Source of the DNA: Dehalococcoidia bacterium
GTDB taxonomy: Bacteria > Chloroflexota > Dehalococcoidia > Lucifugimonadales > Australimonadaceae
Assembly (NCBI GenBank): GCA_965116305.1
Contig: OZ220673.1
Coordinates: 845,705 to 909,704 of the forward strand
Reading direction: 5' to 3'
DNA length: 64,000 bases
This document shows, one piece after another, positions 21,011-64,000 of the stretch. Each line of letters opens with the position of its first letter. Positions within the stretch are counted from its first letter, which is position 1. Made by a program: the position numbers and the translations under genes. Below the pieces are notes generated by a model that made no database searches, had not been told where the DNA came from, and worked only from the letters and a program-made list of their open reading frames with translations.

Positions 21011-21057
21011 CCCTCTCCTCTCCGGGAGAGGGCGCCGCCTCAGCGGCGGTGGGTGGG
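21011..21057 (+). repeat. Palindromic repeat module A in the sufB 5' leader
   Basis: ccctctcc-tctccg-ggagaggg hairpin, gccgc-ctca-gcggc hairpin and gggtggg tail. Confidence 0.65.
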
Positions 21058-21061
21058 AGTG

Positions 21062-21117
21062 CTATTGTCGACTATGGAAGTCAACAATAGGCTATGGTCG
21101 CGACCCTTTCCTGTCAA
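21062..21117 (-). promoter_or_regulatory. sigma70-type promoter of the suf operon with an overlapping palindromic operator
   Basis: TTGACA (21117-21112)-N17-TAGCCT (21094-21089); inverted repeat ctattgtcgact-N5-agtcaacaatag (11/12 match) at 21062-21090. Confidence 0.7.
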
Positions 21118-21128
21118 GGACGCCACGC

Positions 21129-22067
21129 TCACGCGCCCCGGTTGAGATAGGCTTCCAGCGCCTCGCGTGAGGTGTGCCTGCACATGAAGCGTGTCTCCGA
21201 GGTCAGCTTCTCCATGCTCACCGTCCACGGCCACCGGATGAAGCCCAGCCCGGACGATGGGGAGTCGTTCTGCAGATGGGCGCGCCACGCGAACTCCGTC
21301 AGTGCGGAGGCGAGCGGGCCCGGGAGCCGGACCAATCGCTTCCCCGCAAGCGACACGGCTTCGCTCCACCGTACGCTGCCGGCCCCTCCCACGTTGAACA
21401 CGCCCGGGTGCGGCTCCGATGCGAATTTCACCAGCACCTCCGCGAGGTCGTCCTCGTGGATGAACTGCATCCGGGGGTCTTCGCCCCGGACTCCGATGAG
21501 CAGCGGCTTGTCCAACGCGACGGTGATGAAGTTCGCCGCGTTCGGCCCCATCACGACGCAGCTGCGCAGGATGGAGACGCACGCCTCCGGATGCTCGCCG
21601 GCGAACACTTGGAAGAGCGCCTCGCACGCGGCCTTGTCCTCCGCGTAGGCGAACCTCCTTGGAGGGCGGACCGGCGCATCCTCGGTCAGCGCGACGGGGT
21701 TGTCGCGGCGCGGTCCGTAGACGGTCGCGCTCGACATGAGAACGACGCGACGCACGCCCGCGTTCCCGCAGGCGCGCAGCACGTTCCCGGCGCCGCCGAC
21801 ATTGATCCGCCTGCCTTCCGCGCGCTTGCGGAGCTGCCGCAGCACGAATGCCAGGTGTACGACCGCCTCCGCCCCGGCGAACGCGTCGTCCAGCGGCTCG
21901 GTCATATCCTGCTGGACGTGGGTGTAGCGCTCGTCCTCTACCGTCGAAGGAAGTAGGTCCACGCCTACGATACGCTCGATCTCCCGCGTTTCGAGCAGGC
22001 GCCGCACGAGGCGCGTGCCGATGTAGCCTGACGCGCCGGTGACAGCCACGGCGCGCGGCGTGCTCAC
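21129..22067 (-). CDS. NAD-dependent epimerase/dehydratase (extended SDR)
   Basis: TGASGYIG, SSATVYG, YAEDK, QFIHEDD. Confidence 0.88.
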   Translation of the reverse strand: MSTPRAVAVTGASGYIGTRLVRRLLETREIERIVGVDLLPSTVEDERYTHVQQDMTEPLDDAFAGAEAVVHLAFVLRQLRKRAEGRRINVGGAGNVLRACGNAGVRRVVLMSSATVYGPRRDNPVALTEDAPVRPPRRFAYAEDKAACEALFQVFAGEHPEACVSILRSCVVMGPNAANFITVALDKPLLIGVRGEDPRMQFIHEDDLAEVLVKFASEPHPGVFNVGGAGSVRWSEAVSLAGKRLVRLPGPLASALTEFAWRAHLQNDSPSSGLGFIRWPWTVSMEKLTSETRFMCRHTSREALEAYLNRGA

Positions 22068-22447
22068 CCCGCACCGCGCTCCGTCGCGGCAGCCTCGTCG
22101 GAGAAGTCGAAACCCAGCTCCCCGAGCCCCGCGACCTCGAACCCCAGACCTACCTTGTGCGGCCCCGGCGCGACTGCCCCGCCGCGGTAGGAGATGGTCG
22201 TCGTCTTGTTCATCGCGAGTGTGAACGGCACGCTCTCGGACACCGCGTCGAAGGCGGTCTCCTCGCCGTCGATCTCGAACGTGGACGCCGCGAGGTCGAG
22301 CGGTTCGCCGTCCAGCGTCAGCGGCAGCATGCGCTTTGCGTAGCCGGAACCCAGCTTGTTCTGCAACTGGAACGTGAAGCCATCAGCCGTCGCGGTGAGG
22401 CTGCCCTTCACGTACAGCCTGCGGAGCAGGAACGGGGGGATTTTCAT
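22064..22447 (-). CDS. Hypothetical beta-rich protein with an LYVKGSL motif
   Basis: Clean ORF with 4-nt overlaps to both neighbours. Confidence 0.75.
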   Translation of the reverse strand: MKIPPFLLRRLYVKGSLTATADGFTFQLQNKLGSGYAKRMLPLTLDGEPLDLAASTFEIDGEETAFDAVSESVPFTLAMNKTTTISYRGGAVAPGPHKVGLGFEVAGLGELGFDFSDEAAATERGAG

Positions 22448-23112: not shown

Positions 23113-23160
23113 CCTAGATTAAGCATAGCAGCGCACAGCGCAGGTATGGGAGCGTTAGGT

Positions 23161-23312
23161 CCCCTCTCCCTTGAGGGGAGAGGGTTAGGGTGAGGGTGAA
23201 CCGGCGGGGTGTGCGGGCGGGATGTCCGGTGTAGGGGCGTCCCTTGTGGGCGCCCTCTGGCCCACCTCTCCCTCGGGGAGAGGTCGACGCGCTTGCGCGG
23301 CGGGTGAGGGTG
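23161..23312 (+). repeat. Mosaic palindromic repeat cluster (A', GTAG REP-like, A)
   Basis: cccctctccc..ggggagagggttagggtgaggg; tgtaggggcgtcccttgtgggcgccct; cacctctccctcggggagaggtcg..gcgggtgaggg. Confidence 0.9.
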
Positions 23313-26025: not shown

Positions 26026-27008
26026 CCCCGCAGTCGCCCCCACACGTCCGGGTTGACCAGCCGCAACGGCTGCTCGCCGCGTGCGAAGCGCTCGAAGTCC
26101 TCGGCCACCATCGCCGAGTGGCGCTCTATCGTCTCCTGCGTCGCGCCGCCGATGTGTGGCGTCAGCAGCACGTTCGGCAGGCCGATGAACGGCGAGTCCG
26201 GCGGGATGGGGTGCGCCTCGTGCACATCGAGCGCCGCCCCGGCGAGCCTGCCCTCGGCGAGCGCCGCCGCCAGCGCCGCCCGGTCCGCCACTGACGAGTT
26301 GGTGACGTTCACAAGGTACGCGCCGGGCTTCATCGCCGCGATGCGGGCCTCGTCCAGCATACCCATCGTCTCGGGCGTGTCCGGCACATGCATCGATACG
26401 AAGTCCGACGCGGCAAGCAGGGCTTCGAGGTCGGTCATCTCTACGCCCTCGGCATCGTTTACGTAGGGGTCGTAGGCGAGGACGCGCATCCCGAACCCGG
26501 CCGCGATACGCGCGACCGCGCGCCCTATCGCGCCGAAGCCCACGATGCCCAGCGTCGCTCCGGCGAGTTCGCGTCCCCGGAAGCGGACGTACGGGTCGGT
26601 GGGGTCCTCCCACTGCCGCTCACGTACGTACCGCTCGCCCGCACTCGTGTGACGGGCGAGAGCGAGCATCTGAGCGACCGCGAACTCGGCGACGGCCTGA
26701 GCGTTCCGTGCGGGCGTGCGCACCACGGCGATGCCGCGCTCGGTCGCGGCTTCGAGGTCGGCGTGGTGGAGGTCGCCCCGGCAGATGGCGGCGATGCGCA
26801 GTCCGGTCGCGGCGTCGAACAGCTCTTCGAACAGGAAGTCGGCCTCGACCGCGAGCGCGTCGAACCCCTCGTTCGTCAGCCGCGCGCCGAGCTCCTCCGG
26901 GTCCCAGAGCGTGCGCGTCTCCGTCCACGGCTCGTGTACGACGCCGCCCAGCGCGGCGAGGCGGGCGAGCCCGTCGTTCGAGAACGGCGCAAGCACGAGC
27001 GTGTTCAT
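26022..27008 (-). CDS. D-isomer-specific 2-hydroxyacid dehydrogenase
   Basis: Start MNTLVLAP (27008; ATGA overlap with hpnE); GIVGFGAIG, AALDV, TPHIGG. Confidence 0.88.
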   Translation of the reverse strand: MNTLVLAPFSNDGLARLAALGGVVHEPWTETRTLWDPEELGARLTNEGFDALAVEADFLFEELFDAATGLRIAAICRGDLHHADLEAATERGIAVVRTPARNAQAVAEFAVAQMLALARHTSAGERYVRERQWEDPTDPYVRFRGRELAGATLGIVGFGAIGRAVARIAAGFGMRVLAYDPYVNDAEGVEMTDLEALLAASDFVSMHVPDTPETMGMLDEARIAAMKPGAYLVNVTNSSVADRAALAAALAEGRLAGAALDVHEAHPIPPDSPFIGLPNVLLTPHIGGATQETIERHSAMVAEDFERFARGEQPLRLVNPDVWGRLRG

Positions 27009-28396
27009 CGCGCGCCTTGTCCCCTCCTCACGGCCTCCGCGGCGATATTGCCGCTGCGCACAGCGCTCTCCATCGTTGCAGGCCAGCCGGTATCCGTCCA
27101 GTCGCCCGCGAGGAAGAGGTTGGGCAGGGGCGTGGCGGACGGCAGGCGGTTGTCCGGCGCGTCCGGGAGCGAGCGGAACGTCGCCCGCTGCTCCTTCACG
27201 ATGACGAACCGCGTGATCTCGGCGTCCTTCGCGGCGGGGAAGAGCCGCGCCAGCTCCGGGATGAACGTCTCGCGGAGCGCCTCCTTGCTCATCGGCCAGA
27301 ACTCCCACGCCCCCGACAGCGACACGGTGATGTACTGTCCCGGTCCCTCGAGGCCCGCGATCTCGGTGCGGTTGAACACCCACTGGACGGGGCTGTCCAC
27401 GAACGCGAGGAACTCGAAGTCCGCGATCTGCCGGTCGTACCAGACGTGCAGGTTGACGATGGGCGACCACGTGTGCGTCGCGGCGGGAGCGAGGGCGGCG
27501 TGCTCACGCACCTCCTCCGGCAGCAGGCGCAGCAGGCCGTCCGGCGGCAGCGCGCTCACGCACGCGTCGACGGGCAGGGTTTCGCCGTCCGTGAACCGGA
27601 CGCCGGTGACGCGCCCGTCCTCCACGACGAGCGCGTCCGCCGTCCTGTCGAGCAGCACCTCGGCGCCCGCGTCCATGAGCCGCTCCCGCACGGCGTCGCC
27701 CATGATTGCGGAGAGCCCCGCCCTGGCGAAGCCGATGTTGCCCCCGTTCCGGTCGCGCAGCAGCGCCTCCTGGAAGAGCATGAACCCTGCGCTCGCGGAG
27801 ACGTCCTCCGCCGAGTCGTTCAGCGCCGGGACGATGAGCAGGTCCCAGAACGCGTGGATGGCCCGCTCCGACTGCCAGTGCGACCGCAGCCAGCGGTGGA
27901 ACGATTGCCGCCGTAGCGCCGGGCGATCGCGGTTGCGCTCCAGCCACATCAGGACGAGCGCGGGTATCGCGCGGAGCCGCTCGCCGATGCTGACGTGCGG
28001 GTAGCGCAGCAGCGACGGCAACAGGTGGAACGGCGCGGGCAGGGGAAGCCCCGAGAGGACGCCGCTCTTGCCGTTGGGAGAGCGCACCTCGACGTGCAGC
28101 CGCTTCTGGCGGCTCGTCAATTCGAGAGAGCCGATCTCCCCAAGGAAGCGTTGGTAGACGTCGCAGCAGCCGAGGAAGACGTGCTGCCCGTTGTCAATCT
28201 CCTGCCCGGTCTCGCGGTCGACGAACGAGTAAGCCCTGCCGCCGAGGTACGGTCTGCGCTCCACGAGCGTCACGCGGTAGCCCGCGTTGACGAGCCGCCA
28301 CGCCGCGGCCATGCCCGCCAGCCCGCCCCCGAGCACTGCGACGGAGGTCAGCGCTTCAGGACGCTGCGGAGCCGGGCCGTTGTCCAGAGTCTGCAT
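27005..28396 (-). CDS. hpnE: Hydroxysqualene dehydroxylase HpnE
   Basis: GGGLAG FAD motif, GGRAYSF, IDNGQHVFLG, LAGDWTDTGWPATMESAVRSG; exact start uncertain (49-nt overlap with hpnD). Confidence 0.88.
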   Translation of the reverse strand: MQTLDNGPAPQRPEALTSVAVLGGGLAGMAAAWRLVNAGYRVTLVERRPYLGGRAYSFVDRETGQEIDNGQHVFLGCCDVYQRFLGEIGSLELTSRQKRLHVEVRSPNGKSGVLSGLPLPAPFHLLPSLLRYPHVSIGERLRAIPALVLMWLERNRDRPALRRQSFHRWLRSHWQSERAIHAFWDLLIVPALNDSAEDVSASAGFMLFQEALLRDRNGGNIGFARAGLSAIMGDAVRERLMDAGAEVLLDRTADALVVEDGRVTGVRFTDGETLPVDACVSALPPDGLLRLLPEEVREHAALAPAATHTWSPIVNLHVWYDRQIADFEFLAFVDSPVQWVFNRTEIAGLEGPGQYITVSLSGAWEFWPMSKEALRETFIPELARLFPAAKDAEITRFVIVKEQRATFRSLPDAPDNRLPSATPLPNLFLAGDWTDTGWPATMESAVRSGNIAAEAVRRGQGAR

Positions 28397-30179: not shown

Positions 30180-30187
30180 GCGAGGCC

Positions 30188-30634: not shown

Positions 30635-30698
30635 GCCCTCATCCTCTGGGGTACGGCCATTCTGCAACTGAGACGGCCGGAGTTGATACGACTCTAGC

Positions 30699-33661: not shown

Positions 33662-33680
33662 CTAGGTTCCTTCCTGTTCC

Positions 33681-33822
33681 GTTATTCCTGCGCAGGCCCG
33701 CGCTTCAGCGCGCAACCTCGCATCCCACCTCTCCCTTGAGGGGGAGAGGTCGCGCTGAAAGCGCGGGTAAGGGTGATTGGTCCCTTCCCCCTCGATGGGG
33801 GAAGGCTAGGATGGGGGTGAAC
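33681..33822 (+). repeat. Mosaic palindromic repeat cluster
   Basis: gttattcctgcgcaggc-ccgcgcttcagcgcgc-aacctcg; A module; cccttccccctcgatgggggaaggctaggatggggg. Confidence 0.9.
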
Positions 33823-34380: not shown

Positions 34381-34484
34381 CCTCGTCGTTCCTGTCTCAT
34401 CCCGTCGTTCCCGCGCGGGCGGGAATCCAGTCCTGACCTCTCCCTGGGGGAGAGGTCGCTGCGCGTCAGCGCGGCGGGTGAGGG
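34381..34484 (+). repeat. Mosaic palindromic repeat cluster
   Basis: gtcgttcccgcgcgggcgggaatccag followed by an A module ending gcgggtgaggg. Confidence 0.88.
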
Positions 34485-34490
34485 CGGATC

Positions 34491-36006: not shown

Positions 36007-36226
36007 CCCTCTCCTGGGAAGAGGTAGCGCGCTTCAGCGCGCGTGGGGCCCTGTGGTGTGGGGTGGCGTTGTCATGCTGCGCGAAGCGGAGCGGAGTCGA
36101 AGCATCTCTCAATGGGAGTCCGCTTGTTCAGGGCTTCCCTGGGTACCTGACTGGGAGTGCAGAGGGGACCCCTCTGCCGGGGGCGTGGGGGTGTCCCCCA
36201 CAGCGCACCGGGTGGGTGGGTGGGAA
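36007..36226 (+). repeat. Mosaic palindromic repeat cluster
   Basis: Degenerate A module; cgcgcttcagcgcg; gtcatgctgcgcgaagcggagcggagtcgaagcatct; gcagaggggacccctctgc and tgggggtgtccccca hairpins. Confidence 0.8.
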
Positions 36227-37317: not shown

Positions 37318-37423
37318 CTCGTCGTTCCTGCGCAGGCCCGCGCTTTAGCGCGCAACCTCGCCCCTTACCTCTCCTGAGGGAGAGAGCCTGCCCTGAGCTT
37401 GTCGAATGGGTCGCCGCGCAGCG
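37318..37423 (+). repeat. Mosaic palindromic repeat cluster directly upstream of the tRNA
   Basis: B module with ccgcgctttagcgcgc insert; A module with nested gcctgccctgagcttgtcgaatgg. Confidence 0.85.
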
Positions 37424-42918: not shown

Positions 42919-43935
42919 ATGATCATCGACGTCCACGGCCACTACACGACCGCTCCGCGCCAGTTGCGCGAATGGCGCGCCCGCCAGATCGAGAGCGCCG
43001 GACGCCCCTTCACCGAGCCGCTGTCGATCAGCGACGACGAGATACGCGAGACCATCGAGAACGGCCAGCTCAGGCTCCAGCGCAATCGCGGAACGGACGT
43101 GGCGCTCTTCTCGCCGACCGCGGGCGGGATGGGGCATCACTTCGGCGACGCCCGCACGAGCATCCAGTGGAGCCGCACCGTGAACGACCTCGTCCATCGC
43201 GTCTGCACGATGTTTCCGGACAACTTCATCGGCGTCTGCCAGCTCCCGCAGTCGCCGGGCGTCTCGCCGACGGAGTGCATCGCGGAGCTCGACCGCTGCG
43301 TCAACGAGTTGGGGTTCGTCGGCTGCAATCTCAACCCCGACCCGACCGACGGCTACTGGACCGACCCGCCGCTGACCGACCGTTGGTGGTACGGGCTCTA
43401 CGAGCGCATGGTTGAGCTGGAAGTCCCCGCGATGGTCCACGTCAGCATGTCCTGCAACCCGAACTTCCACGGGACGGGCGCGCACTACCTGAACGGCGAC
43501 ACGACGGCCTTCATGCAGTTCCTCCTGTCGGACCTGTTCAGGGACTTCCCGACGCTCAGGTTCGTGCTTCCCCACGGCGGCGGGGCCGTCCCGTTCCACT
43601 GGGGCCGCTACCGGGGCATCGCGCAGGACATGGGCAGGCCGCCCCTCGACGAGCTGCTGCTCCCCAATCTCTACTTCGACACCTGCGTCTACCACCAGGA
43701 GGGCATCGACTTCCTCGTCAAGGTGATGGGCGCGCCCAACGTCATCTTCGCCTCCGAGATGATCGGCGCCGTGCGCGGCGTCGACCAGCGGACAGGCCGC
43801 TACTTCGACGACACCAAGCCGTACGTCGATGCCGTCCCCGGCATCACCGAGGCCGAGAAGCGCCGGATATTCCAGGACAACGCGCTGGAGGCCTACCCCC
43901 GCCTGCAGAGCAGGCTGGGCGTCACTCCTGTTTGA
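42919..43935 (+). CDS. ligJ: 4-oxalomesaconate hydratase (LigJ-like amidohydrolase)
   Basis: MIIDVHGHYTTAP, CQLPQSPG, NLNPDP, HGGGAVP.HWGRYRG, FASEMIGAVRG, YFDDTK. Confidence 0.88.
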   Translation: MIIDVHGHYTTAPRQLREWRARQIESAGRPFTEPLSISDDEIRETIENGQLRLQRNRGTDVALFSPTAGGMGHHFGDARTSIQWSRTVNDLVHRVCTMFPDNFIGVCQLPQSPGVSPTECIAELDRCVNELGFVGCNLNPDPTDGYWTDPPLTDRWWYGLYERMVELEVPAMVHVSMSCNPNFHGTGAHYLNGDTTAFMQFLLSDLFRDFPTLRFVLPHGGGAVPFHWGRYRGIAQDMGRPPLDELLLPNLYFDTCVYHQEGIDFLVKVMGAPNVIFASEMIGAVRGVDQRTGRYFDDTKPYVDAVPGITEAEKRRIFQDNALEAYPRLQSRLGVTPV

Positions 43936-43936
43936 T

Positions 43937-44128
43937 CCCCTCTCCCTCAAGGGGAGAGGGTTAGGGTGAGGGTGCTGTGGGGGTAGGACGGAGCGGAGTG
44001 CCTGCCCACCTCTCCCCAAGGGAGAGGTCGCCGCCTCTGGCGGCGGGTGAGGGTTGCGTACGCGACAGCGGAGCCCGCGCTTTAGCGCGTCCCTTCCCCC
44101 TCGACGGGGGAAGGTTAGGATGGGGGTG
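43937..44128 (+). repeat. Mosaic palindromic repeat cluster
   Basis: A' (ggggagagggttagggtgaggg), A, cgcgctttagcgcg and cccttccccctcgacgggggaagg modules. Confidence 0.9.
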
Positions 44129-44159
44129 TACGCGAGAGGTTGCAAAGAGGAGGGAACCG

Positions 44160-46381: not shown

Positions 46382-46417
46382 CAGACTCCCTCCTCTGACG
46401 GAGAGACCCCTCTCTCC

Positions 46418-46757
46418 GTCATTCCTGCGAAGGCAGGAATCTCGCCTGGTGTAGGGGTACCCCTTGTGGGCGCCCTTCGCTCACCTCTCCCCGGGGGAGA
46501 GGTCGCCGCGCGACAGCGGCGGGTGAGGGTGGACCGACGCGGGGCGCAGCCCCCGTCATTCCCGCGCAGGCGGGAATCCAGTGTGACCATCAGGTCACGA
46601 GGAGGTGTGGTGCGTGGAGGGGGTTCGTCATTCCTGCGAAGGCCCGCGCTTTAGCGCGCAATCTCGCCTGGTGTAGGGGCACCCCTTGTGGGCGCCCTGT
46701 TCCGGCCCCTCTCCTGAGGGAGAGGTCGTCGTGCGGCAGCGCGGCGGGTGAGGGCCC
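46418..46757 (+). repeat. Mosaic palindromic repeat cluster with an internal tandem duplication
   Basis: Two B-GTAG-A units (46418-46529, 46627-46754) separated by attcccgcgcaggcgggaat. Confidence 0.92.
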
Positions 46758-48812: not shown

Positions 48813-49132
48813 TCCGTCGTTCCCGCCCTTCCTCGTCATTCCCGCGAAGGCGGGAATCCAGCGCGCGGAGCGCCCATGTGCAACCTCTCCCCTCCAGGGA
48901 GAGGTTGCCGCGCGGTAGCGGGGCGGGTGAGGGTGAACGTCATTCCCGCGTAGGCGGGAATCCAGTGCGCGGCCAGTGAGCCGCGCGTGGTGTAGGGCAG
49001 GGTGGCTTGTCATTCCGAGCGCAGCGCAGCGGAGCCTCGCGCTTTGGCGCGCGGAATCCTCTCGGGCGTGTATCCTCACCTCTCCCTTGGGGAGAGGTCG
49101 CCGCGCGGTAGCGGGGCGGGTGAGGGTGAGGC
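48813..49132 (+). repeat. Mosaic palindromic repeat cluster
   Basis: Two ATTCCC-N8-GGGAAT units, two A modules, and gtcattccgagcgcagc...ggaatc. Confidence 0.92.
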
Positions 49133-51366: not shown

Positions 51367-51448
51367 GTGTTCTCTCTCCTGCCGTTGTGGTGTATGGCGG
51401 CGCGTAGCATAGCAAACCACGCGCAAGCGGGCAGGCGGGGCGCATGGT

Positions 51449-51730
51449 CCCCTCTCCCTACAAGGGGAGAGGGCTAGGGTGAGGGTACTGCGGGCGAGGC
51501 GCGGAGCCTCGTCGTTCCCGCGCTTTAGCGCGCAACCTCGCCTCCCCACCTCTCCTGAGGGAGAGGTCGACGCGCTCGCGCGGCGGGTGAGGGCCCTGTG
51601 TGGCGGTGTGGTGCTGGGAGTCTTGTCATGCAGAGCGGAGCGCAGCGGAGTCGAAGCATCTCTCGGGTTATGCTTGTCCCCACCTCTCCTGAGGGAGAGG
51701 TCGACGCGCTTGCGCGGCGGGTGAGGGCCC
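51449..51730 (+). repeat. Mosaic palindromic repeat cluster
   Basis: A' and B-with-insert modules; two near-identical A copies of about 52 bp (51545, 51678) flanking gtcatgcagagcggagcgcagcggagtcgaagcatct. Confidence 0.92.
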
Positions 51731-53938: not shown

Positions 53939-54014
53939 CCCGCAGGGCTCCGGCTTCGCTCCTTGAGAGACCTCTGCAATAACCGGTGGGATAGATGCGG
54001 CGCGGGGTGCTTGG

Positions 54015-54180
54015 CCCCTTCCCCCTCGATGGGGGTGAACCGCCTGCGTGAGGGTAGTGTCTGACCCCCTCGCCCTCTGGGAGAGGGCAACGCGCCTTAG
54101 CGCGTGGGTGAGGGTTGGTGGCGGCGTGGGGGTGTCTGGCCCCTTCCCCCTCGATGGGGGAAGGCTGGGATGGGGGTGAA
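54015..54180 (+). repeat. Mosaic palindromic repeat cluster
   Basis: Two cccttccccctcgatggggg modules flanking an A-type module. Confidence 0.85.
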
Positions 54181-54234: not shown

Positions 54235-54259
54235 CTGACTGCGGTTGGCGTGGAACTCC

Positions 54260-55993: not shown

Positions 55994-56178
55994 TGGTTCG
56001 TTTCGGGCGGTTAGCGATGGCACGGGATACCTCCATTTTCAACCCTACGATATTAGCCGATGGTGGTTCCTTGCTAAGTCTCAATAGAAGTATCAATACG
56101 CTCTGTCTTGCTTGCACTTACTCCCCACTCCGCTACACTCCCGCGGTGTGGCGCACGCAACACGATAGGAGGTGCGAC

Positions 56179-56991
56179 ATGTCGGTCGAGGGCAAGGTGG
56201 TCGTCGTCACGGGCGGAGCGAAGGGCATCGGCCGGTGGGTGGCGAAGACGTTCGCGAAGGAGGGCGCGCAGCTCGCGATCGCCGACGTCGCGCCCATGGA
56301 CACGGTGATGGGCGAGGTGCAGGCCCTCGGCGGCGAGGCCATCGCCGTCCGCACCAACGTCTGCGTCGAGGACGAGGTGCGCTCGCTCATGGACCAGGTC
56401 TACCGGCGCTACGGGCGCATCGACGTCCTCATCAACGACGCCGCCATCGTGACGCATTTCCACGAGGGCGCGCCCCGCTGGCCACGCATCCGCGACATGG
56501 ACGAGGCGTTCTTCGACAAGGTGATGCGCACCAACCTCGGCGGCACGTTCCTCTGCACCAAGCACGTGCTCCCGTACATGGAATCGCTCAACGCCGGGCA
56601 CGTCATCCACTTCGGGCAGGGCACGCTTAAGGTGCGCCTTGGCGCCGCACCCAACATCGGCACCTGCGTCTACGCCGTCTCCAAGCTCTCGATCCGGGCG
56701 TTCGCCAAGTTCGTCGCCGAGGAGGAGCGCGAGTTCAATATCTGCGTGTTGAGCATGGGGCCGGGCAGCGGTGGCGGGGACGAGCGAGCGCGCGAGACTG
56801 GCGCGGGCATCCCCGGCGGTGGCGGCGGCATCGTCACCGAGGACAGCCCGCAGTGGGCCCGCGAGAGCCCGCGACCGGCGCAGGTCGAGTCCGTCGGCGA
56901 CCGCTACGTGCTCGCGGCGCAGGCGGGCATGGAGTTCTCCGGCTGTCAGGTCACCGTCCGCGACGGCGCCCTCGCCATCGTCGAGGACTAG
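56179..56991 (+). CDS. SDR family oxidoreductase
   Basis: ATG 56179 after AGGAGG; TGGAKGIG, INDAA, YAVSK. Confidence 0.88.
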   Translation: MSVEGKVVVVTGGAKGIGRWVAKTFAKEGAQLAIADVAPMDTVMGEVQALGGEAIAVRTNVCVEDEVRSLMDQVYRRYGRIDVLINDAAIVTHFHEGAPRWPRIRDMDEAFFDKVMRTNLGGTFLCTKHVLPYMESLNAGHVIHFGQGTLKVRLGAAPNIGTCVYAVSKLSIRAFAKFVAEEEREFNICVLSMGPGSGGGDERARETGAGIPGGGGGIVTEDSPQWARESPRPAQVESVGDRYVLAAQAGMEFSGCQVTVRDGALAIVED

Positions 56992-56998
56992 CGCGCGT

Positions 56999-57223
56999 GT
57001 CATTCCGAGCGAAGCCCGCGCTTTAGCGCGCGGAATCCTCTCTGATTGCTTGGTGTAGGGGCGTCCCTTGTGGGCGCCCTTCGTCGTTCCCGCGGAGGCA
57101 GGAAACCCGGCCTGGTGTAGGGGCATCCCTCGTGGGTGCCCTGCCTGATCCCTCCTTCACTCCGGGAGAGGGCCTGCCCTGGGCTTGTCGAATGGGTCGA
57201 TGCGCTTCCGCGGCGGGTGAGGG
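56999..57223 (+). repeat. Mosaic palindromic repeat cluster
   Basis: gtcattccgagcgaagc with insert, two GTAG REP-like units, B module, A module with nested gcctgccctgggcttgtcgaatgg. Confidence 0.92.
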
Positions 57224-57229
57224 CGGGAC

Positions 57230-58411
57230 CTACGAACGCTCCAGCACCACCCCCGCCTCCTCCTCCGGCACCCCGAACTGCCGCAGCACGCTCTCCGTGT
57301 GCTGGCCGAGAGTGGGGGCGGGCATGCGCACCTGGCCCGGCGTCGCCGACATCTTGACCGGGATGCCGAGGTTGTTGACGACCCCGGCCACGGGGTGCTC
57401 GAGCGGCGCCACCATCCCGCGCGCCATGACGTGCTCGTTCGCGAACACCTCGTCCATGCCGTAGATCGGCCCCGCCGGGACGCCCGCCTGTTCGAACACG
57501 GCCAGCCACTCAGCGGACGTGCGCGTGCGCGTGGTGCGTTGTATCTCCTCGGCTAGCGCCTCGTAGTTGCGGACGCGGTCCGGGTTCGCCGTGAAGCGGG
57601 AGTCGGTCAGCAGGTCAGGACGCTCGAGCGCGGCGCAGAGGCGCTCGTAGTTTGCCTGGTTCGCCACGCCGATGTTGAAGTAGCCGTCGGCGCTCTGCAT
57701 CGCCTGGTAGGGGGCGACGAGACGGTGCGCCGACCCCTTCGGGCCGGGCACGGCGCCGGAGCCCCAGTACTCCGCGGCCTCCCAGACGGTGAGAGCGACC
57801 GCGGCTTCCAGCAGCGACGTGTCGATGACCTGCCCCTCACCGGTCTTGAGCCGGTGGACGTAAGCGGCGAGGACGCCGTTGGCAGCGAACAGTCCGGCGC
57901 TCAGGTCGGCGAGCGGGATGCTCACTTTCACCGGCGGCGAGGCCGGGTAACCTGTCACGCTCATCATGCCGGACATGCCCTGCGCCAGCAGATCGTAGCC
58001 CGGACGGGTGGCGTAGGGGCCGGTCTGCCCGAAGCCGGAGATGGACACCCAGATCAGTTCCGGGTGCTCCTCTCGCAGTTTCACAGGGCCGAGGCCGAGC
58101 CGCTCCATCGTGCCGGGGCGGAAGTTCTCGGCAATGACGTCGGCCTGCGCGGCGATGCGCCGGAAGACCGAGCGGTCGACCTCGTTCCGCAGGTCGAGGA
58201 CGATGCTCTTCTTGTTGCGGTTGATGCCGAGGAACGCCGCGGACTCGCCGTGGATAAACGGCGGCCCCATGCGCCGGGAGTCGTCGCCGCCCGGCTTCTC
58301 CACCTTGATGACGTCCGCGCCCATATCGGCGAGGAGCATCGTGCAGAACGGCCCCGCCATCACCTGCGTGCAGTCGAGAACGGTGACGCCCTCCAGTGGC
58401 ATCGGAGGCAT
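57230..58411 (-). CDS. Family III CoA-transferase
   Basis: MAGPFC..LLADMGADVIKVE, ENFRPG, PLADL, APTLGQHT. Confidence 0.92.
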   Translation of the reverse strand: MPPMPLEGVTVLDCTQVMAGPFCTMLLADMGADVIKVEKPGGDDSRRMGPPFIHGESAAFLGINRNKKSIVLDLRNEVDRSVFRRIAAQADVIAENFRPGTMERLGLGPVKLREEHPELIWVSISGFGQTGPYATRPGYDLLAQGMSGMMSVTGYPASPPVKVSIPLADLSAGLFAANGVLAAYVHRLKTGEGQVIDTSLLEAAVALTVWEAAEYWGSGAVPGPKGSAHRLVAPYQAMQSADGYFNIGVANQANYERLCAALERPDLLTDSRFTANPDRVRNYEALAEEIQRTTRTRTSAEWLAVFEQAGVPAGPIYGMDEVFANEHVMARGMVAPLEHPVAGVVNNLGIPVKMSATPGQVRMPAPTLGQHTESVLRQFGVPEEEAGVVLERS

Positions 58412-58414
58412 GTT

Positions 58415-59203
58415 CTACCTCCCCTGGAAGCGCGGCGGGCGCTTCTCCATGAACGCCCGGTAGCCCTCCTGTCCGTCCTCCGTATCGAAGATGGAGAGGG
58501 GCAGCCAGCGCTCCTCATCGGTGAGGGCTGTGAGACTGGGTTTGGCCAGGACCGTCCGGATGATGCGTTTGTGCGCGGACTGTGAAAGTGGGGCGTAGGT
58601 CGTCATCTCTCTTGCCAGGCCATACGTGTGCTCGACCAGTCGATCGGCCTCGACAACCTCGGTCAGCAGGCCGATGCGCAGCGCTTCCTGCTCGTCGATG
58701 CGGCGCGCGGTCAGCAGCAGGTTGGCGGCGTGTCCGGGTCCTACGAGGTGTAAGAGTCGCCGCATCTCGTTGTAGCCGACGAGCACGCCGATCTTTGCGA
58801 CCGGCACCCCGAACGTGCTGCCGGTCGACGCGATGCGGAGGTCGGCGGCCATTGACAGCTCGCAGCCTCCGCCGACGCATATCCCGCGGATCATGCAGAT
58901 GACAGGTTTCGGCATCTGCTCGACGGCGTCGAGCGCGCCCTCGAAGGCGTCGGCGTATTCTCGGGCGAGCTCGCTGTTGCTCCGGTGCGCGGGAAAGTCC
59001 TTGATGTCGGCGCCCGCCGAGAACGCCTTCTCCCCGGCGCCCGTGAGCACGACCACGCGCACGCTCTCGTCCGCCCCGAGCCGCAGCGCCGCGTCGCGCA
59101 GCAACCCCCACATCTCGAAGTCGATGGCGTTGTGCTGGCCGGGCCGGTTCAACGTGATCGTCCCGACCCCGTCCTCCACTTCGACGAGTACCTTGTTGCT
59201 CAT
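58415..59203 (-). CDS. Enoyl-CoA hydratase/isomerase
   Basis: Start MSNKVLVE (59203); AFSAGADI, GGGCEL, AFMEKRPPRF. Confidence 0.9.
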   Translation of the reverse strand: MSNKVLVEVEDGVGTITLNRPGQHNAIDFEMWGLLRDAALRLGADESVRVVVLTGAGEKAFSAGADIKDFPAHRSNSELAREYADAFEGALDAVEQMPKPVICMIRGICVGGGCELSMAADLRIASTGSTFGVPVAKIGVLVGYNEMRRLLHLVGPGHAANLLLTARRIDEQEALRIGLLTEVVEADRLVEHTYGLAREMTTYAPLSQSAHKRIIRTVLAKPSLTALTDEERWLPLSIFDTEDGQEGYRAFMEKRPPRFQGR

Positions 59204-59212
59204 GGGGCAATC

Positions 59213-59429
59213 CTCGTCGTTCCTGCGGAGGCAGGAACCTCGCCCCTTGCAAACGAGGACCCAGCCCTCGTCATTCCCGCACCGGCGGGAATCCAGGGTG
59301 CGCGGGCAGCGCACGCGGTGGGGCTAGGAGGGCGGCGCTTGGTGTAGGGGCGCCCCTTGCGGGCGCCCTGCCTCGCATCCCACCTCTCCCTCGGGGAGAG
59401 GTCGACGCGCTTGTGCGGCGGGTGAGGGT
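59213..59429 (+). repeat. Mosaic palindromic repeat cluster
   Basis: gtcgttcctgcggaggcaggaacc, attcccgcaccggcgggaat, tgtaggggcgccccttgcgggcgccct, A module. Confidence 0.92.
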
Positions 59430-59501
59430 TACTCGGGTGATGGGTGCGCAGCTCGCTCATGGGGAGCAAGTATATCGGGTTGGCCAGCGGTCGCCCGCCC
59501 C

Positions 59502-60278
59502 CTACAGGTCCTGGCTCACCAGCTCCGTGTAGTACTTCCAGACACCGCCGATGAGGACCGGCGGCATGTTGGCGAGCGGGCGCGAGAGGTGCGGCGCCTC
59601 GCGCATCGCGGCCTGGCCTGCGGCGAACTCGTCCATGCTCTCGTCCGGGATGCCCTTGTAGTCCGGCCCGAACGCCGCCAGCGCGACCCAGTTGAGGCGC
59701 GACTGCTCCTCCAGGTGCAGCATGTTCATCACCGACTGCTCCATGTTGCGACCCGTCGTCACCGCGCCGTGTCCGCGCAGCAGCAGGGCGGGGCTGTTGC
59801 CGATGGCCTCGACCACCTGCATCCCGTCCTCCTCTGTGATGATGAGCTTGGAGTGCGGGAAGACGGGGATATCGTTCCGCACGAGCTGGTGCCCCTCGTT
59901 CGACATCGGCTTGAGCTTCACGTCGTTGAGGCCGAGCACGTTGGTGTAGCGGGGGTGCGTGTGGACGACCGAGAGCACGTCCGGGCGCTCGCGGTAGATG
60001 CACGAGTGCATCTTGACCTCGTAGCACTGCGAGGTGCCCTTGGGGCCGTCGACGAAACTGCCGTCCATGTCGACGACGATCATCTCCTCCGGCCTCACGA
60101 CGGCGAGGGCGTCAGTCTCGTAGCCGCGCCCCTTCACGACGAAGAGGTCCGGTTGGTTGGGGACGCGCATGCTGACGTGTCCGAGCGAGGCGAGGATATG
60201 CGTGGCGAGGCCCATCTCCGCTAGGACGCGGTTGGCTATGGCGACTTCCCGTTTGACTTCGTCGATTTCGCGTGACAT
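59502..60278 (-). CDS. Class II aldolase/adducin family protein (possibly decarboxylase-like)
   Basis: Start MSREIDEV (60278) after GGAGG; GHVSMR, EVKMH, HTHP, RGHG. Confidence 0.85.
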   Translation of the reverse strand: MSREIDEVKREVAIANRVLAEMGLATHILASLGHVSMRVPNQPDLFVVKGRGYETDALAVVRPEEMIVVDMDGSFVDGPKGTSQCYEVKMHSCIYRERPDVLSVVHTHPRYTNVLGLNDVKLKPMSNEGHQLVRNDIPVFPHSKLIITEEDGMQVVEAIGNSPALLLRGHGAVTTGRNMEQSVMNMLHLEEQSRLNWVALAAFGPDYKGIPDESMDEFAAGQAAMREAPHLSRPLANMPPVLIGGVWKYYTELVSQDL

Positions 60279-60337
60279 GGGGCTTCCTCCGTGGTTATTG
60301 AGACTTCCCCGCTTGTTATCACCGGCCGCATGGCGCG

Positions 60338-61510
60338 TCAAACAGGCGCGTGGTACTCGAACACCTCGGCGGCAGCCGCGGCTTCTGCGACGAGCGCGGG
60401 GACGTCCAACCGCGCCTCGTGCTCCGCGATCTGCTCCGTTCTGACGGCGGTCGCGGGTGAACGCGGCACGAACAGCGTGCAGCAGTCCTCGTCTGGCAGG
60501 ATCGACGTCTCGTACGTACCGATCACCTGCGCCTGGTCGATGATCTCGCTCTTGTCGAGCCCCACCAGCGGGCGCAGTATCGGCATCGACGCCGCCTCGT
60601 CGACCGTTGCGATGTTGCGAAGCGTCTGCGAGCCGACCTGCCCGAGGCTCTCGCCCGTCACGAGCGCCTGCGCGCCCTCCCGCGCAGCGATCGCCTCCGC
60701 GATGCGCACCATGAAGCGCCGGTAGGCGATGACGCGCAGCGGCCCGGGGACCTCCAGTATCACGCGACGCTGCACGTCGGCGAATGGCACGAGGTGAAGG
60801 CGCGTGTCGTACTGCCAGCCGTTGAGCGACTCCGCGAGCTCCTTCGCCTTGTCGCGGGAGCGCCCCTCCACGAGCGGGAAGGCGTGGAAGTGCACCAGCA
60901 ACGCCTTGCAGCCGCGCCGCATCATGCGCCACGCCGCGACCGGCGAGTCGATGCCGCCCGACATCATCACCGCGACCTTGCCGCCGGTGCCAACGGGCAG
61001 GCCGCCTGCGCCGCGATAGTCGTCCGCGTACACGAAGGCGTCGTCGCGCCCCACCACCACGCGGAAGTCGGCCTCTGGGTGCGAGAGGTCGACGCGCGCG
61101 CCGGTGGCCTCGCGTATCTCGTCGCCGAGGCGAACGTTGAGGTCGTGGGAGGTGAGGGGAAACGTCTTGTCGGTGCGGTTGGCGGAGATGCGGAACGTCG
61201 AGAAGGAGCGTGCATCCGCCGTCTCGTGCAACAGGGCGGAGACCGCCCCGTAGTCGGGCTCGGCGCGGGCGGCAAGGCTGAACTTCACTGCGCCGAACAC
61301 CGTAGCTGTCCGCGCACGGACAGCTTCCCAGTCCGCTTCGGGCGCGAGGCGCATGCGCACCAGCATCCGCGTCGCCCACACGCGCTCGACGTCGAGCCCG
61401 GCGGTCGCCCGTTCGAGGTTCTCGACGAGGCGTCGCACGAACATCGGTTGGTTCTTGCCCTTCAGCCCGATCTCATGGAACCGGACGAGCACGTCGCGCG
61501 GCTGCTGCAC
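60338..61510 (-). CDS. thiI: tRNA 4-thiouridine synthase ThiI (no rhodanese domain)
   Basis: EIGLKGKN, THUMP domain, GGLPVG, SGGIDS, TGESLGQVGSQT, EDCC. Confidence 0.93.
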   Translation of the reverse strand: MQQPRDVLVRFHEIGLKGKNQPMFVRRLVENLERATAGLDVERVWATRMLVRMRLAPEADWEAVRARTATVFGAVKFSLAARAEPDYGAVSALLHETADARSFSTFRISANRTDKTFPLTSHDLNVRLGDEIREATGARVDLSHPEADFRVVVGRDDAFVYADDYRGAGGLPVGTGGKVAVMMSGGIDSPVAAWRMMRRGCKALLVHFHAFPLVEGRSRDKAKELAESLNGWQYDTRLHLVPFADVQRRVILEVPGPLRVIAYRRFMVRIAEAIAAREGAQALVTGESLGQVGSQTLRNIATVDEAASMPILRPLVGLDKSEIIDQAQVIGTYETSILPDEDCCTLFVPRSPATAVRTEQIAEHEARLDVPALVAEAAAAAEVFEYHAPV

Positions 61511-61624
61511 CCTGGTCACCCTCCTGCCAGGAGGTGATTGTACCGGGCAGGGATGCCGAATGCGCCGAAAACGTCCCGTATCACGCGTGGCGCGCAGCGG
61601 TGGGTGTGGGATAATCGAACTGCG

Positions 61625-62647
61625 ATGGCAGATGCGGAACTGCAGATCGACCTCCCGGATGCGCCGGCAGATTCGCTGACCACGGAAGACCTGCTGGACA
61701 TCTACGCCACCATGCTCCTCGTCCGCACGCTGGACGAGCGGGTGTGGGCGATGAACCGGCAGGGCAAGGCGGCCATCGTCGCCTCCAGCCAGGGCCACGA
61801 GGCCGCGCAGCTCGCCTCCGTCTGGGCTCTCCGAAAGAACGCGCCGGACTTCTTCTGCTTCACCTACTACCGCGATCTTGCAGTAACGACAGCTCTCGGC
61901 CTGACCGCGGAGGATTCGTTGCGCGGCTTCCTCGCACGGGACGGCGAACCGCTCTCCGGCGCCCGCCAGTTCCCCCAACACGGGGCTGCGCCGGAGTTGA
62001 AGTTCATCAACCACTCCAACGTCATCGGCACGCACGTTCCCCAGGCCGTCGGTTGGGCGCTCGGGGCGAAGATGCGCGGCGAGGACACCGTCGTGGCGTG
62101 CTTCTTCGGCGACGGCACCACGAGCCAGGGCGAGGTGCACGAGGCGATGAACTTCGCCTCCATCCACAAGCTGCCCATCGTCTTCTTCGTCGAGAACAAC
62201 AAGTACGCCATCTCCGTCCCCATGTCGCGCCAGATGGCTATCGAGCGGTACGCGCTGCGGGCCGAGGGGTACGCGATGCCGGGGACGACGGTCGACGGCA
62301 CCGACGTGCGCGCCTCGTACCAGGCGGCTTCGACCGCGGTGCAGCTCGCGGCGATGGGCGGCGGGCCGAGCATCGTCGAGTTCGACGTCGAGCGTTACCT
62401 GCCGCACACGAGCGATGACGACGATACCGTCTACCGTGACCCCGCCGAGATCGAGGAGGCCCGGAAGCGCGACCCGCTGGAGAAGCTGCACGCGCTGCTC
62501 TCCGGCACGGGGATGCTCTCCGAGGAGCGCGACGCAGCGATGAAGAAGCGGGCGCGCGACGAGGTGAACGTGGCGACCGACGCCGCAGAGGCCGCGCCGT
62601 TCCCCAGCGACGAGGACGTGTTCCGCCACGTAACGAGCGAGACGTAG
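61625..62647 (+). CDS. 2-oxoacid dehydrogenase E1 alpha (branched-chain type)
   Basis: QGHEAAQ, YYRD, GDGTTSQG ThDP motif...NN, HTSDDD. Confidence 0.9.
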   Translation: MADAELQIDLPDAPADSLTTEDLLDIYATMLLVRTLDERVWAMNRQGKAAIVASSQGHEAAQLASVWALRKNAPDFFCFTYYRDLAVTTALGLTAEDSLRGFLARDGEPLSGARQFPQHGAAPELKFINHSNVIGTHVPQAVGWALGAKMRGEDTVVACFFGDGTTSQGEVHEAMNFASIHKLPIVFFVENNKYAISVPMSRQMAIERYALRAEGYAMPGTTVDGTDVRASYQAASTAVQLAAMGGGPSIVEFDVERYLPHTSDDDDTVYRDPAEIEEARKRDPLEKLHALLSGTGMLSEERDAAMKKRARDEVNVATDAAEAAPFPSDEDVFRHVTSET

Positions 62648-62649
62648 CG

Positions 62650-63633
62650 ATGCCAGTCGTCACCGTCATAGAAGCGATACGCGACGCGATGCGCGAGGAG
62701 ATGGAGCGCGACTCGTCCGTGTTCGTCATGGGCGAGGACGTGGGCCGCAGGGGCGGCGTCTTCCTCGCCACGAAGGACTTCCTGGACGAGTTCGGCGAGG
62801 AGCGCGTCGTCGACACGCCGCTCGCCGAGGCGTCGATAGCCGGCATCGCGGTCGGCGCGGCGCTCTCCGGCCTGCGCCCCATCGCAGAGGTGCAGTTCGC
62901 GGACTTCATCTGGCCGACGGTGAACCAGATGATCGGCGAGGCCGCGCGCATCCGCTACGGCTCCAACGGGAAGCTGAACGTGCCGATGGTGCTGCGCTCT
63001 CCCTACGGCGGACACGTGCGCGGCGGGCTCTACCACTCCCAGAGCGTCGAGTCGTACTTCGCGCACACGCCCGGGCTGAAGGTGGTCGCTCCCGCGACGC
63101 CGTACGATGCGAAGGGCCTGCTGAAGGCCGCCATCCGCGACGACGACCCCGTCATCGTGCTGGAGCATAAGCGGACGTACCGCTCGGTGCGCGGCGAGAC
63201 ACCGGACGAGGACTACGTCGTGCCCATCGGCTCCGCGGAAGTGAAGCGTGAGGGGACCGACGTGTCGGTCATCACGTACGGCCTCACGCTGCACTACTCC
63301 ATGCAGGCGGCGGCTGAGCTGGAGAACGAGGGCGTGAGCGTCGAGGTTGTCGACCTCCGCACGCTGCGTCCGCTCGATACGGAAACGGTGCTGGAGTCGG
63401 TGCGCAGGACGAGCAAAGCGCTCGTGGTGCACGAGGACAACGCCGCCGTGTCGGTCGGCTCCGAGGTGAGCGCGCTCATCGCGGAGCACGCCTTCGAGTA
63501 CCTGGACGCGCCGGTGATGCGCTGCGCGGGGCCGGAGATACCGGCGATGCCGTTCGCGCCCACGCTGGAGGCGGCGTACATGCCCACGGCGGAGAAGATA
63601 GCGGCCAAACTCAGAGAACTGGTGGCGTACTGA
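62650..63633 (+). CDS. 2-oxoacid dehydrogenase E1 beta (branched-chain type)
   Basis: GEDVG..GGVF, DTPLAE, EVQFADF, YHSQS, DLRTLRPLD. Confidence 0.93.
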   Translation: MPVVTVIEAIRDAMREEMERDSSVFVMGEDVGRRGGVFLATKDFLDEFGEERVVDTPLAEASIAGIAVGAALSGLRPIAEVQFADFIWPTVNQMIGEAARIRYGSNGKLNVPMVLRSPYGGHVRGGLYHSQSVESYFAHTPGLKVVAPATPYDAKGLLKAAIRDDDPVIVLEHKRTYRSVRGETPDEDYVVPIGSAEVKREGTDVSVITYGLTLHYSMQAAAELENEGVSVEVVDLRTLRPLDTETVLESVRRTSKALVVHEDNAAVSVGSEVSALIAEHAFEYLDAPVMRCAGPEIPAMPFAPTLEAAYMPTAEKIAAKLRELVAY

Positions 63634-63635
63634 GC

Positions 63636-64000
63636 ATGATCAGGATCATCGAACTGCCGCAGGTGGGCGAATCGGTGACGGAGGGCGTCATCGGCAAGTG
63701 GCTCGTGGAGCCGGGACAGCACGTCGAGAGATACGACCCCCTCGTCGAGGTCGTCACCGACAAGGTGAGCATGGAGGCGCCGTCGCCGTACACGGGCGTG
63801 TTCGTCCGTGCCCTCGCCGAAGAGGGCGAGACGGTGCCGATGGGCCAGCCGATCTGCGAGATGGAGGTCGAAGGCGAGGACGGGAGCCCTGTCATTCCGA
63901 GCGCAGCCGAGGAATCTCTCGGGGCGGAACGCAGTTCCGTCGTTCCTGCGGAGGCAGGGACCTCCCAGCCCGACTCCGCTGAACACCTCTCCCTTGAGGG
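63636..64000 (+). CDS. Dihydrolipoamide acyltransferase E2: lipoyl domain and linker (runs off the window; absent from the ORF track)
   Basis: ATG 63636: MIRIIELPQVGESVTEG..W...EVVTDKVSMEAPSP lipoyl motif; frame open to the window end. Confidence 0.9.
   Translation, partial: MIRIIELPQVGESVTEGVIGKWLVEPGQHVERYDPLVEVVTDKVSMEAPSPYTGVFVRALAEEGETVPMGQPICEMEVEGEDGSPVIPSAAEESLGAERSSVVPAEAGTSQPDSAEHLSLE
63891..64000 (+). repeat. Mosaic palindromic repeat cluster in frame within the E2 linker
   Basis: gtcattccgagcgcagccgaggaatct, gtcgttcctgcggaggcagggacc, cacctctcccttgaggg. Confidence 0.85.

Follow-up and report, generated by a model that had tools for sequence, protein, structure and literature searches.

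Polarity domains of mosaic repeat arrays and their coupling to local G/C strand skew in the genome of an uncultured Dehalococcoidia bacterium

Short structured repeats, among them the repetitive extragenic palindromic (REP) elements, the dRS3 repeats and the BoxC or potential intrastrand triplex (PIT) motifs, have been known from bacteria for decades and have, to our knowledge, no agreed function or spreading mechanism; we know of no enzyme for the CGTC-tagged REPs or for the BoxC motifs. Arrays of such repeats were analysed in a 64,000-nucleotide stretch (hereafter the window), positions 845705-909704 of a single-contig genome of 2,917,805 bp and 66% G+C, termed G000, and were followed through the whole genome and into its relatives. 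The host was found to be an uncultured SAR202-type Dehalococcoidia bacterium with sponge-associated relatives. The arrays were found to be oriented in domains, independently of the present direction of replication, and their polarity was found to be inherited with the locus and coupled to the local G/C strand skew.

In Escherichia coli, the BoxC/PIT motif, also termed triplex motif (TM), was reported in 23 copies, 13 on the + strand and 10 on the − strand, with no strand bias and with five inverted pairs (Holder 2015, PMC4666352). The CGTC repeats were described by Di Nocera 2013 (PMC3733652) mainly as head-to-head dimers without a transposase, the head-to-tail form being negligible, and were listed there in five phyla, among which the Chloroflexi do not stand. 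The units of the REP doublets (REPINs) and of the bacterial interspersed mosaic elements (BIMEs) were reported to alternate or to be inverted (Nunvar 2010), and an orientation bias that arises through the lagging-strand template was reported for the IS200/IS605 elements (Ton-Hoang 2010, cited in Gomez et al. 2014, PMC3971601). The RRS of E. coli was described as a structured GC-rich element present in two copies per genome, active only with its G4 strand as the lagging-strand template and followed by one-sided gaps of up to ~2 kb that trail off (PMC10592627). The open-access literature searched yielded no description of REP polarity by domain, nor of a local GC skew tied to REPs.

Repeat modules and the described families

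Seven nhmmer profiles, named A, A′ (alias A2), F, B, C, D1 and D2, were seeded from genome-wide pattern matches; the classes A′/F and B/D1 overlap. The arrays are mosaics like the BIMEs and the Neisseria intergenic mosaic elements (NIMEs), built from four already described kinds of short structured repeat.

The modules A′ and F belong to the BoxC/PIT motifs, whose putative intrastrand triplex is laid out as a pyrimidine stem, then a purine stem, then a third strand rich in G. The A′ consensus ATCCCCTCTCCCTCGAGGGGAGAGGGTTAGGGTGAGGGTGAA (52 seed copies) was found to have nearly the same letters and plan as the E. coli TM/BoxC type A (Holder 2015, Table 1), and both this consensus and the window copies matched the BoxC/PIT/TM consensus CCCTCNCCC-N3-6-GGGNGAGGG-N3-GGGNGAGGG in class II order, that is, pyrimidine stem, purine stem and 3′ third strand. 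By inspection, F follows the same plan in other letters, each of its third-strand bases suiting a purine-motif triplet, and A follows it with a CGCGC hairpin, absent from the E. coli motif, placed in an enlarged loop 2. As in E. coli, the motifs were intergenic, stood at loci that vary between close genomes and had neither an attached mobile-element gene nor a link to a transposon, phage or plasmid; 694 of the 734 profile matches of G000 lay outside predicted coding sequences (CDS) and 40 lay more than half inside them, all CDS, intergenic and third-position results given here being those of our own codon-usage gene caller, which is crude. They differ from the E. coli motifs in number and arrangement, since ~370 copies of A, A′ and F stand here in mixed arrays and are co-oriented by domain, and the triplex is here a putative one.

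The B consensus CCCGTCATTCCCGCGAAGGCGGGAATCCAGC was found to contain a CGTC tag, an 8-bp stem beginning with AT, a 4-nt loop and a CCA tail, which is the definition of CGTC-1/dRS3; B shares with that family also the lack of a transposase and the mixed-unit arrays known from Neisseria. The arrangement differs, head-to-tail order being the rule here: 96% of the 54 B pairs within 2 kb were co-oriented, and the head-to-head dimer, an organisational habit and not a sequence criterion of CGTC-1, was not the form found. The module D1 contained a B half joined to a CGCGC hairpin and was grouped with the CGTC-tagged dRS3-type REPs. Co-oriented tandems of B-type units with a spacing of ~112 and 160 bp were also observed in a genome of the same order (G016, e.g. 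3026419-3026912 and 1104500-1105003), and head-to-tail arrays are thus present in another family of the order.

The C consensus TGGTGTAGGGGCGTCCCTTGTGGGCGCCCTGT was found to contain the GTAG tag 5′ of a bulged hairpin, as in the GTAG REPs, and the arrays resemble BIMEs as mosaics of REPs and linkers. The likeness ends at the REPIN and its transposase: 95% of the 20 C pairs within 2 kb were co-oriented, G000 lacks the REP-associated tyrosine transposase (RAYT), and inverted doublets were formed only by D2, a TGTC-tagged unit of which 43% of 14 pairs were co-oriented. The predicted single-strand folds of A′, F, B and C contained hairpins of 8-9 bp, the G-rich 3′ tail of A′ and F being left unpaired, and D2 alone was predicted to fold poorly. 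A sequence-only reading of the window that preceded this analysis had already called the modules REP-like, in agreement with the GTAG tag of C and with B as a CGTC-tagged dRS3-type REP as described by Di Nocera 2013; the BoxC/PIT identity of A, A′ and F, which came from the comparison with Holder 2015, was missing from it.

Polarity of the arrays in the window and in the genome

Repeat search and direct reading found module-built strings in the intergenic gaps of the window from ~21 kb on. All 38 profile matches were found on the + strand, in 12 arrays, several families sharing one polarity; three or four sub-threshold remnants were present besides (21011-21060, ~54005-54060, 63938-64000 and 37355-37420). 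The motif GGGTGAGGG was present in 16 copies, every one on the + strand, where shuffled sequence would yield 0.74, and ATTCCC-N8-GGGAAT in exactly four copies against 0 expected, whereas no nhmmer profile match was found in window 1-23159. The sequence-only reading had given the same picture, with about 15 clusters of one direction, four exact copies of the latter motif and a first 21 kb free of repeats. It had also placed modules inside CDS on either strand, and this did not hold: all window arrays were intergenic under the codon-usage gene calls, the claim having arisen because over-extended open reading frames (ORFs; e.g. 49138-52038) cover arrays. The gene pairs that flank the 12 arrays were −/− in five cases, −/+ in two, +/− in four and +/+ in one, so that arrays stand between gene pairs of every orientation and their own orientation does not follow the flanking genes; 60% of the coding DNA of the window lay on the strand opposite to all arrays.

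The genome was found to contain 772 raw and 734 non-overlapping profile matches, nearly even between the strands, in 352 arrays. Only 20 of the 178 multi-unit arrays were of mixed orientation, and the alternation typical of BIMEs was not found. The units within an array, and the arrays within domains of ~5-120 kb, share one direction: the 337 oriented arrays formed 65 orientation runs against 169.4 expected (z −11.4), and pairs were co-oriented in ~90% of cases below 10 kb, in ~55% at 10-50 kb and in 37-44% at 50-200 kb. The closest complete relative, G005 (2,869,799 bp, 92.7% identity over 2.36 Mb, largely collinear), was found to contain 798 matches in 370 arrays, which formed 70 runs against 184 expected (z −11.9); G000, which is 95% complete, and G005 are both metagenome-assembled and close kin, and are not independent samples.

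A replication map was made from the third-position differences between G000 and G005, as C<->T per pyrimidine against A<->G per purine, averaged over the gene strands; such unpolarised contrasts of the two genomes assume near-equilibrium. The log ratio was +0.11 to +0.20 in each 150-kb window over 0-1.05 Mb, near 0 at 1.05-1.2 Mb and −0.10 to −0.26 at 1.2-1.95 Mb, and the map thus contains two clean replichores. The cumulative GC skew of G000 was found to be irregular, dnaA lies at 2.63 Mb, and G000 and G005 differ by a 352-kb inversion that contains dnaA and by several translocations (G000 1.95-2.92 Mb vs G005 0.6-1.47 Mb). In this rearranged, origin-proximal part the map follows the arrangement of G005, which indicates that the arrangement of G000 is recent or misassembled.

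Array polarity is independent of the present direction of replication. The arrays split 146 one way to 160 the other relative to the map, and the copies in the two unambiguous replichores split 230 to 186, both classes being equally similar to other copies. The arrays are like the IS200/IS605 elements in their hairpin-ended, single-strand-type sequences and their strong non-random orientation, and differ from them in that the orientation does not follow the replichores and no Y1 enzyme is present. In the transition-asymmetry regressions, the replichore coefficient was +0.16 to +0.19 and the array or block coefficient −0.03 to −0.07, small and of opposite sign, and forks therefore do not reverse at the domain walls; multiple origins or locally reversed forks were rejected as the cause of the domains, since the transition asymmetry is uniform across them. 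The coupling to the replichores that the sequence-only reading had proposed, with flips to be looked for at the origin and terminus, has to be given up, as many reverse copies lie in one replichore, which that reading had itself named as refuting, and ~65 flips were counted in 2.9 Mb.

Its other expectation, an orientation far from random that does not simply follow transcription, was borne out by the run counts and by the gene contexts. With tandem flanking genes, 115 arrays were co-oriented and 68 were not (63%), a weak trend, and convergent and divergent gaps held arrays of both orientations equally; the setting of orientation by flanking genes was accordingly rejected except as a weak effect. 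Local copying from neighbouring arrays was mostly rejected as well, the best partner lying within 50 kb for 25 of 178 A, 8 of 141 B and 1 of 66 F copies, and copy similarity rose only in pairs within 2 kb.

The window was found to contain no mobiliser gene, as the sequence-only reading had noted, and in G000 there was no match to Y1_Tnp/RAYT (PF01797), to the TnpB zinc-ribbon domain or to DUF559. GIY-YIG, which that reading had named beside RAYT and DUF559 as a candidate mobiliser, had three matches in G000, and one of them lies in a 705-aa frame that we take to be UvrC. Among 61 sampled genomes of the order, Y1_Tnp was present in 11 at E 0.001 or better and was strong (E 2.5e-9 or better) in only 4, and the B pattern was present in 14. 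Self-comparison of the genome revealed no high-copy insertion sequence. Paralogous genes for a terminase-large-subunit-like protein, AAA_25 and a large serine recombinase were observed in it, in pairs 90-95% identical (G000 918882-920402 and 2428985-2430484; 514125-515666 and 2592292-2593830; 2047241-2048944); they are probably small integrated elements, and several of them adjoin domain walls and D2 inverted doublets.

Inheritance, local strand skew and features of the window

Polarity is inherited with the locus while the content turns over. Both flanks placed 303 of the 352 arrays of G000 in G005; the unplaced arrays had no flank match (30), flanks on different strands (16) or flanks far apart (3). 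The placed sites contained the same module string in 41 cases, a different string in 144, a class inflated by the overlap of the module classes, and no array in 118. Of the 185 sites filled in both genomes, 172 agreed in orientation, 4 disagreed and 9 were left undetermined, so that 172 of 176 scorable sites kept it. Presence/absence arrays agreed with all shared neighbours in 71 cases and with one of two in 8, disagreed in 17 and had no shared neighbour within 20 kb in 15. Module sharing was 0.57 for orthologous arrays against 0.42 ± 0.03 for random pairs. Upstream of the formate-tetrahydrofolate ligase gene, an array was found in 15 of 17 close relatives, in the same orientation except for D2 inverted pairs, and none was seen in the other two (L154, L155); the B/A′ core near the gene was conserved and the distal modules were variable. 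In 6 close relatives, the orthologous site of the array 46415..46755 held module strings that differed in composition but all kept the same orientation.

The strand on which the tags and G-rich tails lie is, in the neighbouring genes, rich in C and poor in G. Around the 165 '+' arrays of G000, the repeat-masked GC skew within ±10 kb was below zero in 113 cases, and around the 172 '−' arrays it was above zero in 137; the corresponding counts in G005 were 127 of 183 and 152 of 183. The array top strand itself is G-rich, while the adjoining third positions on the same strand are C-rich. The effect on the third-position G/C (GC3) skew was independent of gene strand, a sense-strand effect of ~−0.11 being present besides (GC3-skew regression: block +0.085, replichore +0.031, gene strand −0.111). 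At 19 well-supported domain walls, the effect of +0.07 to +0.10 turned to ~−0.04 within the first 5-kb bin, and array-free stretches mostly carried the replichore-type sign.

Inside the domains of G000, the skew effect was strongest beside the arrays and fell from 0.114 (up to 150 bp away) and 0.111 (0.15-1 kb) to 0.076 (1-2.5 kb), 0.047 (2.5-5 kb) and 0.026 (5-20 kb), and in G005 it decayed with distance through 0.081, 0.067, 0.036 and 0.009. It was larger for larger arrays (0.073 for one unit, 0.115 for 2-3 and 0.124 for 4 or more) and extended farther on the 5′ side in both genomes (at 2.5-5 kb, 0.052 vs 0.017 in G000 and 0.058 vs 0.011 in G005). The sign was the same on both sides of an array, and a mere position before or after genes is thereby excluded as its cause. 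In the ligase gene, the GC3 skew averaged −0.25 in 5 distant relatives whose array is reversed and −0.04 in 20 whose array is oriented as in the window, a small sample of relatives that are not independent.

About one third of the third-position differences between G000 and G005 were C<->G changes. Set against transitions, they were commoner near the arrays (C<->G 0.054 with transitions 0.072 up to 1 kb away, 0.049 with 0.090 farther than 5 kb), the changes being unpolarised. Genome-wide, C<->G transversions were observed at ~0.05 per third position, about twice A<->C plus G<->T, and at third codon positions they reached 54-75% of the transition count.

The coordinates of the arrays and remnants are given in Table 1. 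The gene content of the window was found to be that of ordinary metabolism (Suf, MutS2, CoA-transferases, a squalene-synthase cluster and others), with a single tRNA as the sole Rfam match, and the relatives found through its formate-tetrahydrofolate ligase were metagenome-assembled Dehalococcoidia or SAR202-cluster Chloroflexota, many of them from sponges. The cluster at 27005-32294 (−) contained five ORFs, a flavin amine-oxidase-like one, two squalene/phytoene-synthase ones and a polyprenyl synthetase, with a small UPF0047 between, and presumably belongs to squalene synthesis of the HpnCDE type. A 1062-aa ORF with no Pfam match (7275-10463, −) lies two genes from a CbbQ/NorQ-type AAA gene (11110-11973, −), with a NUDIX gene between, and may be a large partner protein of CbbQ/NorQ-type ATPases. 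The Cache-domain gene at 54260-55777 contained a 300-bp direct repeat, 72% identical (54664-54963 and 55069-55368), which coincides with two Pfam sCache_2 stretches and is thus an internal domain duplication.

In window 42001-62000, the summed contig depth of bins with arrays was several-fold to >100-fold that of bins without them in X1, X3 and X4, public runs from sponge metagenomes, and as much as ~90-fold in X2, an RNA-library run. The depths are those of Logan contigs, of which uncovered parts are uninformative, and one of X1, X3 and X4 is probably the source sample; the excess says that the units are highly multi-copy in those sponge metagenomes, and no more.

Table 1. Repeat arrays and remnants of the window, with window coordinates
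Positions	Strand	Feature	Basis
21011..21060	+	Degenerate remnant of A type (CCTCTCC..GGGAGAGG..GGTGGGTGGGAG), the window's first repeat string	Direct reading; sub-threshold
23160..23311	+	Array A′ C A (triplex motif, GTAG REP, triplex motif + CGCGC hairpin), flanked by two minus-strand genes	nhmmer, A′ fold
33680..33821	+	Array D1 (+ A-like) F, flanked by two minus-strand genes	nhmmer, F fold with G-rich tail
34402..34485	+	Array B A; site empty in G005 (genome 880106-880189)	nhmmer, alignment
36069..36111	+	Lone D2 unit in divergent gap	nhmmer
37320..37420	+	D1 + degenerate A-like remnant, just upstream of tRNA gene 37441-37514	nhmmer, Rfam
43935..44129	+	Array A′ A F, flanked by two plus-strand genes	nhmmer, reading
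46415..46755	+	Array B C A B D1 C A in convergent gap, largest of the window	nhmmer, reading
48833..49127	+	Array B A B (D-like) A, upstream of formate-tetrahydrofolate ligase gene	nhmmer, reading
51448..51728	+	Array A′ D1 A D2 A in divergent gap; two A copies 98% identical, 134 bp apart	nhmmer, repeat search
54005..54180	+	Truncated F remnant, then A, F in convergent gap; empty in G005 (genome 899770-899884)	nhmmer, alignment
56998..57226	+	Array D1 C B C + degenerate A-like tail	nhmmer, C fold
59214..59429	+	Array B B C A, flanked by two minus-strand genes	nhmmer, reading
63938..64000	+	D1-like unit + start of A unit, cut at window end	Repeat-family search, reading

Possible causes of the coupling and its meaning

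The description is firm as regards the known module kinds, the unusual head-to-tail arrays, the polarity domains, the independence from present replication, the heritability and the coupling to local G/C skew. The explanation of this coupling tentatively preferred here, at somewhat less than even confidence, is that the arrays renew in place by homology and that a strand-specific process around them skews the neighbours and fixes the polarity. The arrays would be long-lived 'nests' that gain, lose and swap modules in place through homology-guided events such as slippage, unequal exchange and conversion from other arrays, and orientation would be kept automatically by such events. The array-centred process would reach a few kb, farther on the 5′ side of the element, and would skew G against C in the neighbours, structure-induced single-strand gaps or repair synthesis being candidates for it. 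The same asymmetry, or selection against nearby inverted copies, would decide which orientation of new modules survives, and through such a filter the polarity domains would reinforce themselves. A process of this kind would account for the distance decay, the dose effect, the difference between the sides, the normal array-free DNA and the purity of the domains despite turnover. The E. coli RRS offers a precedent for kb-scale one-sided single-strand gaps, of the same length scale and sidedness as the skew found here (PMC10592627).

Several points weigh against this explanation. The skew effect is equal in size whichever way the array faces the fork, to which a simple lagging-strand gap model of the RRS type is ill fitted, and it is known as base composition, not as measured gaps. 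No present array-linked asymmetry was found in the substitution classes testable with unpolarised two-genome data. Polymorphic single units already stand in skewed surroundings (0.068), so that the skew may be older than the arrays. Part of the distance decay could come from unseen sub-domains in array-poor stretches, the gene calls are crude and the compared genomes close kin, and the explanation names no enzyme. The more general claim that the arrays create, or read and reinforce, a kb-scale, strand-specific G/C mutational asymmetry that is independent of replication and gene orientation, with domains that maintain themselves, is regarded as possible but on the whole unlikely.

The main rival, an origin in fossil inversions, is somewhat less probable than the preferred explanation. 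Arrays once given one orientation relative to replication, by deposition or selection, with their top strand on the C-rich lagging strand, would have been carried together with the skew by later inversions, the polarity being kept by homology-driven turnover in place and both signals having yet to be erased by present replication. Skew and orientation do switch sharply together at the walls, the skew is weaker in domains that face against the replichore than in those that face with it, and rearrangement is evident, in the synteny of the genus, which is scrambled at a few-kb scale, in the inversion and origin-near translocations between G000 and G005 and in the rearrangement ends, of which 7 of 24 have an array no more than 100 bp away, compared with 10% of random gene ends (P 0.009). 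Rearranged loci have also been tied to the triplex motif in E. coli (Holder 2015, PMC4666352). A uniformly inverted block, however, predicts no distance decay, no scaling with array size and no difference between the sides, and the array-free stretches mostly keep the replichore-type sign. The even split of the arrays leaves no residual replication link, so that randomisation would have to be complete; the domains are pure despite the fast turnover of content, 'wrong-way' copies look equally young, and by our own reasoning recombination between inverted arrays cannot increase the number of domain walls.

RNA-level selection is improbable; here the local skew would be the older feature, and an array would persist only where its orientation suits the locally C-rich or G-rich transcripts. 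The C-rich strand might, for example, serve as Rho-loading or terminator sequence for G-rich read-through or antisense transcripts, a role generally known for Rho. It would be in keeping with the modest co-orientation with tandem flanking genes, with the G-rich top strand of the arrays beside C-rich third positions, with the skewed surroundings of polymorphic single units and with the REPs being mostly downstream of genes and thought to be RNA elements (Di Nocera 2013, PMC3733652). The origin of a local skew that is independent of gene strand is left unexplained by it, and both the equal presence of the two orientations in convergent and divergent gaps and the 60% of window coding DNA opposite to all arrays count against it.

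The insertion of single strands into the lagging-strand template by a RAYT-type enzyme, with an orientation that follows the replichore, was the model of the sequence-only reading and is now very improbable, its simple form being refuted by the ~65 flips and by the split of the arrays against the replication map. The GTAG and CGTC tags and the hairpins do resemble RAYT and IS200/IS605 substrates, and the orientation bias of IS200/IS605 is linked to replication in Gomez et al. 2014 (PMC3971601); yet G000 contains no Y1 transposase or TnpB, strong Y1_Tnp matches are present in only 4 of the 61 sampled genomes of the order, and the CGTC REPs were reported without an associated transposase (Di Nocera 2013, PMC3733652). 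Orientation switches near both extremes of the cumulative GC skew, but with one flip per 45 kb this is expected by chance.

That the contig is a patchwork of misoriented pieces is hardly credible, since the two assemblies, although metagenome-derived and differently arranged near the origin, are separate, mostly collinear and of the same domains, the transition asymmetry contains two clean replichores across the domains, and three further relatives (G001, G003 and G007) are collinear with G000 over the 21-kb transition of the window.

One polarity rule was thus found to govern REPs, dRS3 repeats and BoxC motifs in this organism, a rule that is heritable, domain-wide, linked to composition and uncoupled from the direction of replication and of genes. 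If the arrays cause the skew, elements of non-B DNA would locally shape the strand composition of bacteria, array-made asymmetry would be a third source of bacterial strand compositional skew, and the GC-skew anomalies that are usually read as inversions would need a second reading; polarity domains of 5-120 kb would then outlive the complete turnover of their repeats. If instead the skew orients the arrays, there would exist a strand mark that these elements sense. The complete genomes of the genus make the cause directly testable through polarised substitution spectra.

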